DNA from: Escherichia phage EO1
Sequence record: OQ223305.1
Direction: 5' to 3' (one strand)
Length of the DNA stretch: 64,000 nucleotides
The notes beneath the pieces are model-generated. The model ran no database searches, was not told where the DNA came from, and saw only the letters and a program-made list of their open reading frames with translations. How positions within the stretch are numbered: position 1 is the stretch's first letter; each line of letters opens with the position of its first letter. The translations under genes and the position numbers were made by a program. Of this stretch, positions 51,350-52,945 are shown one piece after another.

Positions 51350-51422
51350 TGGGAATTAGCCAAGTTGGTAAGGCACTGGATTTTGATTCCAGGATGCAAA
51401 GGTTCGAGTCCTTTATTCCCAG
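51350..51422 (+). tRNA. tRNA-Gln (anticodon UUG)
   Basis: Hand-folded cloverleaf: acceptor TGGGAAT/ATTCCCA, anticodon stem CTGGA/TCCAG with loop TTTTGAT, T-loop GGTTCGAGTCC. Confidence 0.8.
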
Positions 51423-51423
51423 C

Positions 51424-51510
51424 GCGAGAATGGTCAAATTGGTAAAGGCACAGCACTTAAAATGCTGCGGAATGATTTCCTTGTGGGTTCGAGTCCCACT
51501 TCTCGCACCA
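51424..51510 (+). tRNA. tRNA-Leu (anticodon UAA), type II, CCA encoded
   Basis: Acceptor GCGAGAA/TTCTCGC, anticodon loop CTTAAAA, long variable arm, GGTTCGAGTCC T-arm, 3' ACCA. Confidence 0.8.
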
Positions 51511-51515
51511 AATTT

Positions 51516-51589
51516 GCGGATATCGTATAATGGCATTACCTCAGACTTCCAATCTGATGATGTGAGTTCGATTCTCATTATCCGCTCCA
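51516..51589 (+). tRNA. tRNA-Gly (anticodon UCC)
   Basis: Acceptor GCGGATA/TATCCGC, anticodon stem TCAGA/TCTGA with loop CTTCCAA, T-loop GTTCGATTC, 3' CCA. Confidence 0.8.
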
Positions 51590-51635
51590 ATTTATGACTC
51601 GTCGTGAGACGCTCAGTTCTTTATTAGGGACTGAT

Positions 51636-52244
51636 ATGCATTTTTATCTTTATAAAATAACAAATAAAATTAATAATAAAGTTTATATTGGTGTGCATTC
51701 TACCGAAAATTTAGATGATGGATATATGGGTTCTGGCAAATTATTAAAAAGAGCCCAAGACAAGTATGGTATAGAAAATTTCTCTAAAGAAATATTAGAG
51801 TATTTTGATGATAAAGAATCTATGCTTGAAGCCGAGAAAAATATTGTCACAGAAGAGTTTTTAAATAGACCAGACGTGTATAATTTAAAACTTGGCGGTG
51901 AAGGTGGATGGGACCATATAAATAATTATCCTATGACAGATCAGCAACGTGAATTAATTTCATTGGGTGTTAAAAAGGCGCATTCTAACGGAAAATTAAA
52001 AGGATGGTCTTCAAATGGATTAATGAAGAATGGCTTTGCTGGTAAAACTCATTCTCAAGAAGCTAAACGTAAAATAGCAAAAGCAAACGAAGCAAAAGTT
52101 TCTGCGGATGAAAGAAAAAGAAGAATAGAAATTTCTAAATTATATGATTTTTCTAAGCGTGGTGAATTATCTAAATATGCTAAGCATATTGGCGTAAGTC
52201 ATACTCAAGCAAAAAGAATTCTAAATCAAATTAACAATATATAA
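51636..52244 (+). CDS. segB: GIY-YIG homing endonuclease (SegB-like) inside the tRNA cluster
   Basis: GIY-YIG motif near the N-terminus (YLYKITNKINNKVYIGVHSTEN) and a basic C-terminal DNA-binding region. ATG at 51636 with AGGGA RBS is preferred over the track start at 51594, which abuts tRNA-Gly. Confidence 0.75.
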   Translation: MHFYLYKITNKINNKVYIGVHSTENLDDGYMGSGKLLKRAQDKYGIENFSKEILEYFDDKESMLEAEKNIVTEEFLNRPDVYNLKLGGEGGWDHINNYPMTDQQRELISLGVKKAHSNGKLKGWSSNGLMKNGFAGKTHSQEAKRKIAKANEAKVSADERKRRIEISKLYDFSKRGELSKYAKHIGVSHTQAKRILNQINNI

Positions 52245-52249
52245 TATTT

Positions 52250-52339
52250 GGAGGCGTGGCAGAGTGGTTTAATGCACCGGTCTTGAAAACCGGCAGTCGC
52301 TCCGGCGACTCATAGGTTCAAATCCTATCGCCTCCGCCA
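52250..52339 (+). tRNA. tRNA-Ser (anticodon UGA), type II
   Basis: Acceptor GGAGGCG/CGCCTCC, anticodon stem CCGGT/ACCGG with loop CTTGAAA, long variable arm, 3' GCCA. Confidence 0.8.
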
Positions 52340-52344
52340 GTTTT

Positions 52345-52420
52345 GCTGATTTAGCTCAGTAGGTAGAGCAACTCACTTGTAATGAGAATGTCGGCGGTTC
52401 GATTCCGTCAATCAGCACCA
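52345..52420 (+). tRNA. tRNA-Thr (anticodon UGU)
   Basis: Acceptor GCTGATT/AATCAGC, D-arm TAGCTCAGTAGGTAGAGC, anticodon loop CTTGTAA, 3' ACCA. Confidence 0.75.
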
Positions 52421-52421
52421 A

Positions 52422-52496
52422 GGCCCTGTAGCTGGAAGGTTCAAGCAAGCGACTCATAATCGCCAGATGGTGGTTCAATTCCACCCAGGGCCACCA
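52422..52496 (+). tRNA. tRNA with CAU anticodon (Met, or lysidine-type Ile as annotated in T4)
   Basis: Acceptor GGCCCTG/CAGGGCC, anticodon loop CTCATAA, T-loop GGTTCAATTCC, 3' ACCA. Confidence 0.75.
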
Positions 52497-52509
52497 AATT
52501 AAGAATTAA

Positions 52510-52596
52510 GGGGAGTTATCCCGTAGAGGTAGCGGTGTGGACTGTAAATCCATTGTCATTGCGACTCGGGTGGTTCGACTCCATCACTCCCCACCA
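52510..52596 (+). tRNA. tRNA-Tyr (anticodon GUA), type II
   Basis: Acceptor GGGGAGT/ACTCCCC, anticodon region ACTGTAAATC identical to the bacterial tRNA-Tyr loop, long variable arm, 3' ACCA. Confidence 0.75.
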
Positions 52597-52600
52597 ATTT

Positions 52601-52675
52601 GGATGTGTAGCTCAATGGCAGAGCGATCGCCTGTTAAGCGATTGGTTATAGGTTCGAATCCTATCACGTCCGCCA
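52601..52675 (+). tRNA. tRNA-Asn (anticodon GUU)
   Basis: Acceptor GGATGTG/CACGTCC (one G-U pair), anticodon stem ATCGC/GCGAT with loop CTGTTAA, T-loop GGTTCGAATCC, 3' GCCA. Confidence 0.75.
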
Positions 52676-52789
52676 AATTTGTGACAACTGTCACATTAAT
52701 ATCTACTTGACGCGATTATAGGGGTTGAACTGATCACTCTTCTCTTAATTTCGTGTGAAGACATCTTGATTGTTGGAGTAGGTATTAAT

Positions 52790-52865
52790 GTGGCCGTAGT
52801 TCAGTTGGTAGAACTCGAGATTGTGATTCTCGTAGTCATGGGTTCGACCCCCATCGGTCACCCCA
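52790..52865 (+). tRNA. tRNA-His (anticodon GUG)
   Basis: Acceptor GTGGCCG/CGGTCAC, D-arm GTTCAGTTGGTAGAAC, anticodon stem CGAGA/TCTCG with loop TTGTGAT, 3' CCCA. Confidence 0.75.
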
Positions 52866-52869
52866 ATTA

Positions 52870-52945
52870 CGGGGCATAGCTCAGAAGGAAGAGCAAGGAC
52901 CTTCTAAGTCCTAGGTCGTAGGTTCGATCCCTACTGCCTCGACCA
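52870..52945 (+). tRNA. tRNA-Arg (anticodon UCU)
   Basis: Acceptor CGGGGCA/TGCCTCG, anticodon stem AGGAC/GTCCT with loop CTTCTAA, T-loop GGTTCGATCC, 3' ACCA. Confidence 0.8.

Follow-up and report, generated by a model that had tools for sequence, protein, structure and literature searches.

A tRNA operon of the T4-like coliphage EO1 with a probably mobile homing-endonuclease gene in place of tRNA-Pro

T-even tRNA clusters and the operon of phage EO1

Homing by SegB, the association of SegB with tRNA genes and an anti-defence role of tRNA-Tyr are already published for T-even phages (2008, 2026). In T4 (NC_000866, 70.9-72.5 kb; Brok-Volchanskaya et al. 2008, PMC2330249) the annotated tRNAs are Gln, Leu, Gly, Pro, Ser, Thr, Ile and Arg, the same eight that a preliminary description of the present locus had named, and a GIY-YIG endonuclease gene, segB, lies within the array. 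T4 SegB cuts the 3' ends of tRNA genes, and its homing reaches ~100% in crosses of T4 with T2L, whose tRNA-Asn is the preferred cleavage site of the enzyme (PMC2330249). T2L (AJ880101) carries Pro and is without an active endonuclease and without Thr, and its Thr slot is taken by the trna.1 ORF. In T6 (AP018814; Chihara et al. 2026, PMC13096335) segB follows Tyr, in place of Asn and His, and both Pro and Ser are missing; tRNA-Tyr, amplified in a SegB-dependent manner, defeats Septu, and this amplification and anti-Septu function have been demonstrated for T6 only. An endonuclease-free array of 11 tRNAs is found in phage Solly (vB_Eco_Solly, OY720021) and in IMG/VR UViG_2974787500. T5 (NC_005859), a phage of another family, also has tRNA genes interleaved with homing endonuclease genes and stable RNAs, but its endonucleases are HNH and not GIY-YIG enzymes.

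The window analysed here, a stretch of 64,000 nucleotides (64 kb) from Escherichia phage EO1 (OQ223305.1), belongs to a Tequatrovirus (98.9% to phage teqdroes), and its tRNA locus has the same genomic position and operon as that of T4. Synteny with T4, T2L and T6 includes rnaD, rnaC and the upstream region. The T-even operon context is kept, with trna.2, trna.3 and ipI upstream and rnaD and rnaC downstream; the region upstream of the cluster aligns to T4 and is nearly identical to it. All features given below are on the + strand. By motif match to the T4 middle-promoter consensus, a probable T4-type middle promoter is located at 51256-51280 (MotA box TGCTTTA, 12-nt spacer, TATTAT -10). Beyond the tRNA genes follow a small ORF of 116 aa (52964-53314), homologous to T2L trna.2 (PHROG 3355, function unknown) and not present in T4, then rnaD, the species 2 stable RNA (53314-53428, 114/116 identical to T4 rnaD), and rnaC, the species 1 stable RNA (53435-53573, 137/139 identical to T4 rnaC). 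A hairpin resembling an intrinsic terminator (53624-53647), which with a T-run spans 53624-53657 and was found in a terminator-like scan, is the probable operon end. In T4, a middle promoter just 5' of the cluster drives the entire operon, and transcription is presumed to terminate after the species I RNA gene (PMC2330249). The locus is a T-even phage tRNA operon, probably expressed as a single transcript.

Ten tRNA genes were identified in the 64-kb window by ARAGORN, and the same ten were recovered independently with Rfam RF00005, all above the gathering score, at E-values of 1e-10 to 2e-14 except for Tyr (30.2 bits vs a cut-off of 29). Neither program found a tRNA-Pro in the window. The preliminary description had folded these tRNAs by hand, and it assigned every isotype correctly; its observation that the array is without Pro and, compared with T4, has Tyr, Asn and His is likewise borne out. 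The array begins with tRNA-Gln (UUG, 51350-51423), a Solly-type allele that is identical to those of T4, T2L and T6 at 65-66 of 74 positions and differs in the anticodon arm, tRNA-Leu (UAA, 51424-51510), identical to T4, T2L and T6 over 87/87 positions, and tRNA-Gly (UCC, 51516-51589). After the endonuclease gene come tRNA-Ser (UGA, 52250-52339; 90/90 with T2L), tRNA-Thr (UGU, 52345-52420), a tRNA with the anticodon CAU (52422-52496), tRNA-Tyr (GUA, 52510-52596), which is of class II with a long variable arm, and tRNA-Asn (GUU, 52601-52675). A gap precedes tRNA-His (GUG, 52790-52865) and tRNA-Arg (UCU, 52870-52945), the latter a T2L-type allele that agrees with T2L at 74/76 positions and with T4 and T6 at only 48/79. 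Eight of the ten tRNAs contain a perfect GGTTCRANTCC T-loop motif, in most of them followed by CCAR.

Homologues of Gln, Leu, Gly, Ser and Thr are present in T4, whereas the CAU and Arg tRNAs of T4 are other alleles, ~61% identical. The T2L array is closer in this part, with Ser, CAU and Asn 100% identical, Tyr and Arg 97-99% identical, and trna.2, rnaD and rnaC present. As the tRNA-Asn is identical to that of T2L at 75/75 positions, by sequence it carries the preferred T4 SegB cleavage site. The CAU tRNA matches that of T2L at 75/75 positions and T4 tRNA-Ile at only 47/77; its best E. coli match (5,424 genomes) is annotated tRNA-Ile, at 81.6% over the full length. Its sequence contains the pairs C4-G69 and C5-G68, which we take to be TilS determinants. 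The gene probably encodes tRNA-Ile2 (lysidine-modified, reading AUA) rather than a tRNA-Met, in keeping with the over-use of ATA by the phage. Most GenBank records label the CAU gene tRNA-Met. The tRNA-Tyr is 85/87 identical to that of T6, and the two differences, one in the anticodon stem and one in the T stem, preserve pairing; its variable arm is unlike that of E. coli tyrU.

The endonuclease cassette in the tRNA-Pro slot

Between Gly and Ser lies a free-standing GIY-YIG homing endonuclease gene (51636-52244), identified by Pfam and sequence comparison, which encodes 202 aa from the second ATG or 216 aa if read from 51594. The GIY-YIG domain (PF01541) scores 26.3 bits vs a gathering score of 22.6, and residues Y6, Y17, G19, Y82 and N83 are the same in SegB and in I-TevI. 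Mutation of the equivalents of Y17 and G19 kills T6 SegB (PMC13096335). I-TevI, encoded in the T4 td intron, has a GIY-YIG domain 26% identical to that of the present enzyme (E = 7e-6) and a similar predicted layout of catalytic domain, linker, NUMOD3-like helix and C-terminal helix-turn-helix; unlike I-TevI, the EO1 enzyme is free-standing and not intron-encoded, and it is without a zinc finger. The C-terminal region aligns to the NUMOD3 and helix-turn-helix region of I-TevI, gives a NUMOD3 score of 20.1 bits, just under the Pfam cut-off of 20.4, and matches HTH_10 weakly (E = 0.056). It is described here as a candidate NUMOD3 plus helix-turn-helix DNA-binding module. No PDB entry matched the endonuclease at E <= 1 in a search by sequence.

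The preliminary description called this gene SegB-like, which is appropriate for the catalytic half but not for the DNA-binding half or the insertion site, both of which differ from those of T4 and T6 segB. By BLASTP against T4 SegB only residues 15-131 align, and residues 15-110 are near-identical to SegB residues 1-96. At the nucleotide level, the leader and first 330 nt of the gene are 97-100% identical to T6 segB, and identity to T6 and T4 segB then drops from 97% to ~60% at a sharp breakpoint at nt ~330. T6 shares the near-identical leader and 5' part of the gene and has the SegB-type C-terminal domain; the C-terminal DNA-binding half of T4 SegB is unrelated to that of the present enzyme. 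A homologue in Klebsiella phage KP13MC5-5, located between tRNA-Gly and tRNA-Pro, displays the opposite identity pattern. Judged from these comparisons the endonuclease is chimeric, a SegB-type catalytic domain being joined to a DNA-binding domain of another lineage, and it is orthologous to T4 SegB neither over its full length nor by insertion site. The sites are Ile-segB-Arg in T4, Tyr-segB-Arg in T6 and Gly-endonuclease-Ser in the window.

The cassette of ~655 bp abuts tRNA-Gly, whose 3' CCAA forms the left boundary, and on the other side the 5' end of tRNA-Ser, and it exactly replaces the tRNA-Pro and spacer (~80 bp) of Solly and T4. Solly has Pro and no endonuclease, and is 100% identical to the window over Gln-Leu-Gly and 99.5% identical downstream; an IMG/VR locus is likewise 100% identical over Gln-Leu-Gly with Pro instead of the cassette. 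In Solly-type arrays all ten tRNAs of the window occur in the same order and near-identical, as do the leader of tRNA-His, trna.2, rnaD and rnaC. The cassette leader (51594-51635) is common to T6 segB and the Klebsiella homologue. Within it, folding and the terminator-like scan give a hairpin at 51613-51634 that sequesters the Shine-Dalgarno sequence of the endonuclease, AGGGA; a similar hairpin occluding the ribosome-binding site has been proposed for T4 segB (PMC2330249). Whether the 42-nt leader derives from the 5' half of tRNA-Pro was also examined, and such an origin was not established. Both share GCTCAGTT at a similar offset (local score 10 vs 6.9 +/- 1.4 for shuffles), but some shuffles outscored the real pair.

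The reading preferred here, to which a probability of roughly 0.8 is given, is that of a T-even tRNA operon in which an 11-tRNA array has lost Pro and holds a recombinant endonuclease cassette in the Pro slot. The full array would be Gln, Leu, Gly, Pro, Ser, Thr, Ile2, Tyr, Asn, His and Arg, and the window that set minus Pro. A transcript running from the middle promoter near 51256 to the terminator near 53650 would be processed by host RNases, RNase P among them, to yield the ten tRNAs together with stable RNAs D and C. On co-infection with an endonuclease-free relative the enzyme would cut the recipient near the Gly/Pro junction, a target suggested by the position of the gene, and repair of the break from the donor would copy in the endonuclease gene with its flanks and erase tRNA-Pro. 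Such endonuclease-driven spread is published for T4 SegB (PMC2330249) and may, by analogy, apply to the EO1 enzyme.

The preliminary description had regarded Tyr, Asn and His as additions to the T4 set. The direction appears to be the reverse, with T4 as the reduced form: the Tyr and Asn tRNAs have matches in 648 phage records and tRNA-His in 344, and since these tRNAs are widespread and an 11-tRNA endonuclease-free array exists, T4, which retains Pro, would have lost Tyr, Asn and His at segB, where the window has them, and the window would have lost Pro. The ancestral array proposed here follows from parsimony and not from a tree. That the identical cluster is common to all close relatives was named in the preliminary description as a finding that would refute it, and this is largely the case. 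The same architecture is present in 36 GenBank/RefSeq records at 94-99% cluster identity, although phages that are nearly identical otherwise vary in whether they have the endonuclease or tRNA-Pro.

It is possible, if rather doubtful, that the endonuclease is kept mainly as a domesticated amplifier, whose breaks would lead through recombination to tandem amplification of tRNA genes or of distant anti-defence genes. This invokes a tRNA depleted by host defence and is compatible with homing. It draws on the near-identity of the catalytic domain to T6 SegB and on the SegB-dependent tRNA-Tyr amplification that defeats Septu in T6 (PMC13096335), on the perfect T-loop motif of eight tRNAs, and on the location of tRNA-Tyr ~270 bp 3' of the endonuclease gene. 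The DNA-binding domain, however, is unlike that of SegB, so that the cleavage spectrum may differ, and neither repeats nor amplification are visible in the window. That the gene is an inactive relic, with the Pro/endonuclease polymorphism upheld by ordinary homologous recombination, is improbable. Phages RB51 and RB68 are annotated with a 'truncated SegB-like protein', and T2L trna.1 retains only a C-terminal domain homologous to the endonuclease (41% identity), which resembles the DNA-binding domain of the enzyme; sequestration of the ribosome-binding site might be taken as a further sign of decay, but it is a regulatory feature of active T4 endonucleases (PMC2330249, PMC2988022). Against a relic, the ORF is intact in 56 records, the catalytic residues are conserved, and comparison with the 80%-identical Klebsiella homologue gives a dN/dS of 0.21 for the gene as a whole and 0.32 for its C-domain.

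The Asn-His gap and tRNA-His

The gap between Asn and His (52676-52789) contains a small hairpin (52680-52695) and then a conserved, structured leader of ~97 nt (52693-52789), closed by a 14-bp helix that ends at nt -1 of tRNA-His. The fold z of the leader region is -4.36, and covariation in the leader draws on three lineages. Leader and tRNA-His co-occur (355 vs 344 records) as a module common to Tequatrovirus, Jiaodavirus and Karamvirus phages and missing from T2L. A pattern scan of IMG/VR with the leader core gave four contigs, in each of which tRNA-His follows at 45 nt, and no new sequence variants. An Rfam search of 52600-53750 at a permissive threshold gave no match for the gap, rnaC or rnaD. 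A promoter in the gap was considered and rejected, as its TTGACG is not kept in Klebsiella copies; a generic sigma-70 scan of 50900-53800 returned 11 sites vs 10.1 expected.

The tRNA-His itself is non-canonical. G-1 is the main HisRS identity element. Around the 5' end the window reads TTAAT/GTGGCCG, with C73, while E. coli hisR reads GTAGT/GGTGGCT; position -1 is T in 7/7 distinct copies of the phage tRNA-His, and likewise in T5, so that the canonical encoded G-1 opposite C73 is absent. From its sequence, this tRNA may be a poor HisRS substrate. T5 also has a ~100 nt structured RNA with a long closing helix, RNA III, directly 5' of tRNA-His. Identity between RNA III and the His leader is 53/106, with an alignment score ~1.6 sd above shuffles, and a covariance model of the leader, when run on T5, lands on RNA III at noise level (11.3 bits, E = 4.9). 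RNA III is a positional analogue, homology being supported by neither sequence nor covariance model. Among the papers covered by the search, nothing relevant was found on phage tRNA-His without G-1 or on T5 RNA III.

Codon usage, defence and the meaning of the locus

Codon compensation, proposed in the preliminary description, is supported for all of the ten tRNAs except His, for which it fails. When codons are ranked by phage/host usage ratio, the top seven (AGA, ATA, TCA, AAT, GGA, ACA and TTA) are each matched by a cognate tRNA of the cluster. Relative to a small E. coli sample of 27 genes and 9,607 codons, rich in highly expressed genes, ATA is over-used 6.5-fold, AAT 4.1-fold, CCA 2.5-fold and TAT 2.2-fold. 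Most of the tRNAs decode codons far commoner in the AT-rich phage than in E. coli. Because His codons are not over-used (ratios of 0.96 for CAT and 0.36 for CAC), tRNA-His is unexplained by compensation. The over-use of CCA means that loss of tRNA-Pro should be costly, a point against the preferred reading that speaks for either strong drive or weak selection on tRNA-Pro.

A different view would take Tyr, Asn and His as additions, favoured mainly because they substitute for host tRNAs that tRNA-targeting defence nucleases destroy and not because they match codon usage. Colicin E5-type nucleases act on the four queuosine-family tRNAs, with GUN anticodons, of which these are three, and the lack of over-use of His codons agrees with such a role. 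Over-use of AAT and TAT, however, already explains Asn and Tyr, and in Tevenvirinae the three tRNAs are commonly present and are no additions. Each of the three phage tRNAs has the same 7-nt anticodon loop as its E. coli counterpart, so an anticodon-loop nuclease would cut the phage tRNAs too, and for the same reason escape from anticodon nucleases through loop mutation, which was also considered, is not evident. The possibly poor charging of a tRNA-His without G-1 would further reduce its value as a replacement. Selection of all three mainly for defence thus appears unlikely. Direct published support for an anti-defence role concerns the T6 tRNA-Tyr (PMC13096335), to which the EO1 tRNA-Tyr is equivalent in sequence; by this near-identity it would additionally be of a type that buffers phage against tRNA-Tyr-cleaving defence (Septu, retron-Eco7 PtuAB). 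tRNA-His fits poorly with both the codon compensation and the anti-defence explanation. Tentatively, the Asn-His gap could represent, instead of a spacer, an unannotated conserved structured RNA which forms a module with the non-canonical tRNA-His. The leader would be released by RNase P as a stable RNA, and the module would have a role beyond His decoding, for example by deceiving or sensing a host system that targets tRNAs, or in control of tRNA-His 5'-end maturation.

Overall, the locus is a well-known tRNA cluster of a T4-like coliphage with a mobile homing-endonuclease gene in place of tRNA-Pro. It is ordinary because the same arrangement is found in dozens of sequenced phages, and it adds little, since dozens of T4-like genome records already contain the cluster with its annotation. 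It does illustrate domain shuffling, with one catalytic domain, two DNA-binding domains and two sites ~1 kb apart in the array, and selfish elements eroding a tRNA set, as each cassette stands exactly at the site of at least one absent tRNA gene. T4 segB is found in exchange for Tyr, Asn and His and the cassette of the window for Pro; in Ec_O157kw the Gln slot is taken by an HNH gene, and in T2L the Thr slot by an endonuclease remnant. The module of leader and G-1-less tRNA-His is the sole element of the locus that could open something new.

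The tRNA operon and its distribution

Across the whole 64-kb window ARAGORN predicts exactly ten tRNA genes, all on the plus strand at 51350-52945, with the anticodons, in order, Gln UUG, Leu UAA, Gly UCC, Ser UGA, Thr UGU, CAU, Tyr GUA, Asn GUU, His GUG, and Arg UCU. The identical ten genes exceed the gathering score with the Rfam tRNA model, the sole marginal match being tRNA-Tyr (30.2 bits vs a cut-off of 29), and neither method finds a tRNA-Pro in the 64-kb window. The 660 nt separating tRNA-Gly from tRNA-Ser are filled by one ORF, with a Pfam GIY-YIG domain above cut-off. 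The preliminary description, from hand-folded cloverleaves, of a ten-tRNA cluster split by an endonuclease gene and lacking tRNA-Pro is therefore confirmed in every detail by ARAGORN, Rfam and Pfam, including all ten anticodons; its interpretation proved partly right.

A 2.15-kb query spanning the region matched 1,131 phage records, the best being Tequatrovirus phages (teqdroes at 98.9%, CrRp10, Ge15, KIT03, AR1, and RB18). Single matches over at least 80% of the query, meaning that all ten tRNAs recur with this endonuclease gene at the corresponding position, occur in 36 records. Annotations in these 36 mostly include the tRNAs and a ‘homing endonuclease’, ‘segB’ or ‘segD’ already. Taken singly, the T4-type tRNA-Pro gene matched 352 records, the tRNA-His gene 344, the Tyr and Asn tRNAs 648 (both in 395), and the full-length endonuclease gene only 56. 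Carrying Tyr, Asn and His tRNAs is thus the common condition in the subfamily, so that they are present here as described but are not additions relative to T4, which is a reduced genome. The locus is a standard T-even tRNA operon. Dozens of public genomes already contain it in exactly this form, and the biology that bears on it has been published.

Elsewhere in the operon, a MotA-box/-10 motif (51256-51280) lies in a region near-identical to T4. Between tRNA-Arg and rnaD is a 116-aa ORF (52964-53314; PHROG 3355), a homologue of T2L trna.2 that is absent from T4 and whose stop codon overlaps the rnaD start. Both rnaD (53314-53428) and rnaC (53435-53573) are 98% identical to T4, and a terminator-like hairpin is found at 53624-53647.

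The endonuclease cassette in the tRNA-Pro slot

Array composition varies among relatives. T4 carries Gln-Leu-Gly-Pro-Ser-Thr-Ile-[segB]-Arg-rnaD-rnaC, T2L carries Gln-Leu-Gly-Pro-Ser-[trna.1 ORF]-CAU-Tyr-Asn-Arg-[trna.2]-rnaD-rnaC, T6 carries Gln-Leu-Gly-Thr-CAU-Tyr-[segB]-Arg, and Ec_O157kw carries [HNH]-Leu-Gly-[endonuclease]-Ser-Thr-CAU-Tyr-Asn-Arg. Endonuclease-free arrays of 11 tRNAs, Gln-Leu-Gly-Pro-Ser-Thr-CAU-Tyr-Asn-His-Arg, are found in vB_Eco_Solly (OY720021) and in an IMG/VR contig (UViG_2974787500). Three-way alignment shows the window to be collinear with Solly and near-identical to it except that ~655 bp in the window stand in place of ~80 bp in Solly, a segment made up of tRNA-Pro and a short spacer of a few bases. 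The cassette begins directly after CCAATTTA, the tRNA-Gly 3' end, and ends 1 base 5' of tRNA-Ser. Since Solly is 100% identical over Gln-Leu-Gly and 99.5-99.6% identical from the leader of tRNA-His through rnaC, the endonuclease/Pro difference is a presence/absence polymorphism of recent origin against a background that is otherwise identical. Every endonuclease-type ORF in the genomes examined stands where at least one tRNA of the 11-gene array is missing. The parsimonious reading, not a tree-based one, is that the endonuclease-free 11-tRNA array would be the base state, each cassette having displaced tRNA genes on arrival.

In Ec_O157kw (PV857777) an HNH endonuclease gene, annotated F-TflIV-like, occupies the window's tRNA-Gln position (1216-1824 of the locus), and the Pro slot holds the GIY-YIG gene as well, giving two endonucleases and two lost tRNAs in one array. 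In T2L the place of tRNA-Thr is taken by the trna.1 ORF (AJ880101 locus, 584-985). The C-terminal ~65 residues of trna.1 show 41% identity to the window enzyme's DNA-binding domain, no GIY-YIG domain is detectable in it, and it is probably a decayed endonuclease remnant or a different homing endonuclease.

By sequence the window enzyme belongs to the Seg family of GIY-YIG endonucleases. Its likely start is the second ATG, at 51636, giving 202 aa, because T6 and teqdroes are so annotated and this ATG has an AGGGA Shine-Dalgarno sequence 5 nt ahead of it; none precedes 51594. A 9-bp hairpin (51613-51634) encloses this Shine-Dalgarno sequence, an arrangement like the RBS-occluding hairpins that have been suggested for T4 endonucleases, segB among them (PMC2330249, PMC2988022). 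The stop codon lies 5 nt upstream of tRNA-Ser, so that processing of the tRNAs would sever the message immediately behind the coding region. Hairpin and stop-codon position alike recall how expression of T4 segB has been proposed to be controlled. The GIY-YIG hallmark residues are kept, among them Y17 and G19, mutation of whose equivalents inactivates T6 SegB (PMC13096335). Judged by dN/dS against the Klebsiella homologue (0.21 overall, 0.32 in the C-domain), the gene is under purifying selection, which makes an inactive relic unlikely.

The enzyme had been described as SegB-like, and for the catalytic half this stands. BLASTP aligns T4 SegB only to residues 15-131 of the 216-aa reading, the remainder being unaligned, with near-complete identity between residues 15-110 and T4 SegB 1-96. 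In nucleotide sequence, nt 1-330, a stretch that takes in a 42-nt leader, match T6 segB at 97-100%, beyond which identity drops to ~60%; nt 57-331 are common to T4 segB. For a gene of Klebsiella Jiaodavirus KP13MC5-5, flanked in that phage by tRNA-Gly and an intact tRNA-Pro, the balance is inverted: identity is 83-93% across the C-terminal half but 60-80% across the catalytic one. From these opposite identity patterns the window enzyme is read as a recombinant of a SegB-type catalytic domain and the DNA-binding domain of a Gly|Pro-junction lineage, its breakpoint coinciding with the domain boundary. Against Pfam the C-terminal half scores at the borderline for NUMOD3 and weakly for a helix-turn-helix; the corresponding portion of I-TevI aligns with it, and the I-TevI zinc finger is missing here. 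Orthology to segB is rejected, as both C-terminal homology and insertion site differ.

T4 SegB cleaves at the 3' ends of tRNA genes, recognising the T-loop motif GGTTCRANTCC with cutting preferred after CCAR, and nearly 100% of the progeny of T4 x T2L crosses inherit segB, T2L markers being lost (PMC2330249). The window cassette starts directly after CCAA at the tRNA-Gly 3' end, matching this cleavage position. We infer that the window enzyme would cut endonuclease-free relatives near the Gly/Pro junction and that repair off the donor would copy the cassette in, thereby deleting tRNA-Pro. The window phage should itself be a recipient for T4-type segB, since its tRNA-Asn is identical (75/75) to that of T2L, whose gene bears the preferred T4 SegB site (PMC2330249). 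The array looks like a battleground of competing endonucleases. T6 SegB drives tandem amplification of tRNA-Tyr, by which T6 escapes Septu (PMC13096335). By analogy such amplification could also apply to the window phage, although the geometry is different and so is the DNA-binding domain.

Codon usage and tRNA alleles

Codon usage was compared between 70 window ORFs (19,176 codons) and 27 annotated E. coli K-12 genes (9,607 codons). The seven highest phage/host ratios (AGA 9.6, ATA 6.5, TCA 5.7, AAT 4.1, GGA 3.9, ACA 3.4, TTA 2.9) all belong to codons with a cognate tRNA in the cluster, and TAT (2.2) and CAA (2.0) are enriched too. The proposed codon-usage role is thus supported except for His, whose codons are not over-used (CAT 0.96, CAC 0.36) and which is rarer in phage than in host proteins (1.38% vs 2.03% of residues). 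The codon read by the missing tRNA-Pro, CCA, shows 2.5-fold enrichment, so loss of this tRNA probably carries a cost.

The CAU tRNA (52422-52496), named Met in most database records, is probably a lysidine-dependent Ile2 tRNA, since its best E. coli matches are genes annotated tRNA-Ile (81.6% full-length), it carries C4-G69 and C5-G68, and ATA is strongly over-used. T4 tRNA-Ile, probably alike in function, is only 47/77 identical. For CAU and Arg(UCU) (52870-52945) two deeply diverged alleles exist among T-even phages, the window and T2L having one type and T4 and T6 another, only ~61% identical. The T4-type Arg always occurs together with segB, which suggests that it travelled with the segB cassette. 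The tRNA-Gln (51350-51423) is a distinct allele common to Solly; its whole anticodon arm is unlike that of T4/T2L/T6 (stem CUGGA/UCCAG vs UAGCA/UGCUA; loop UUUUGAU vs CUUUGAC, changing positions 32 and 38) and the rest is identical.

Replacement of host tRNAs cut by defence nucleases had also been suggested. The tRNA-Tyr matches the anti-Septu tRNA-Tyr of T6 at 85/87 positions, and its variable arm differs from that of E. coli tyrU; the tRNA-Tyr variable loop is the cut site of Septu and retron-Eco7 (PMC13096335). At the sequence level this likeness is direct support for an anti-defence role. The anticodon loops of the phage Tyr, Asn and His tRNAs are those of the host and offer no obvious escape from anticodon-loop nucleases.

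A structured leader and tRNA-His without G-1

The 114-nt Asn-His spacer (52676-52789) folds far better than its shuffles (z = -4.36). This leader is found in 355 phage records vs 344 for tRNA-His, the two co-occurring in ~350 records of at least three genera. In Klebsiella and Enterobacter T4-like genera it is 81-89% identical and its upstream neighbour is tRNA-Gln, not Asn; in four IMG/VR contigs a distance of exactly 45 nt separates its conserved core from tRNA-His downstream. Among seven distinct sequences the closing helix of 13-14 bp, the 3' strand of which extends to nt -1 of tRNA-His, is 100% paired, with six pairs varying, two of these on both sides. A 4-bp hairpin adds two further compensatory pairs, and the core GGGTTGAACTGATCA…TCTTCTCT…AATTTCGT is almost invariant. 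Covariation in these alignments, from three lineages only, is suggestive of a conserved structure. No Rfam family matches the leader, and it is annotated as a feature in none of the 40 matches listed, where overlapping annotations are only adjacent tRNA-Gln genes and one hypothetical protein.

At the leader/tRNA-His junction (52789/52790) the base at -1 is T, not G, and C73 is kept, in all T4-like copies inspected (the window and loci L006, L008-L013 and L017-L020; seven distinct). E. coli hisR encodes G-1, and G-1 is the major HisRS identity element, genome-encoded in bacteria (PMC3064791, PMC4338351, PMC4357726).

A positional and architectural analogue is found in T5 (NC_005859), where RNA III, annotated ‘stable RNA with unknown functions’ (2285-2390 of the locus, minus strand, 106 nt), directly adjoins tRNA-His (junction 2284-2285), which has T at -1 as well. 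RNA III folds with a 12-bp end-to-end closing helix enclosing internal hairpins. It resembles the leader only weakly in sequence, and a covariance model built from the T4-like leader gives it no more than a noise-level score (11.3 bits, E about 5), so that the likeness is one of analogy, homology being demonstrable by neither sequence nor model.

The leader with tRNA-His is the only lead in the locus that could be new. Beyond existing annotations, the analysis places the endonuclease precisely in the stead of tRNA-Pro, points to its chimeric nature, and identifies a module of leader and tRNA-His without G-1 that codon usage does not account for.
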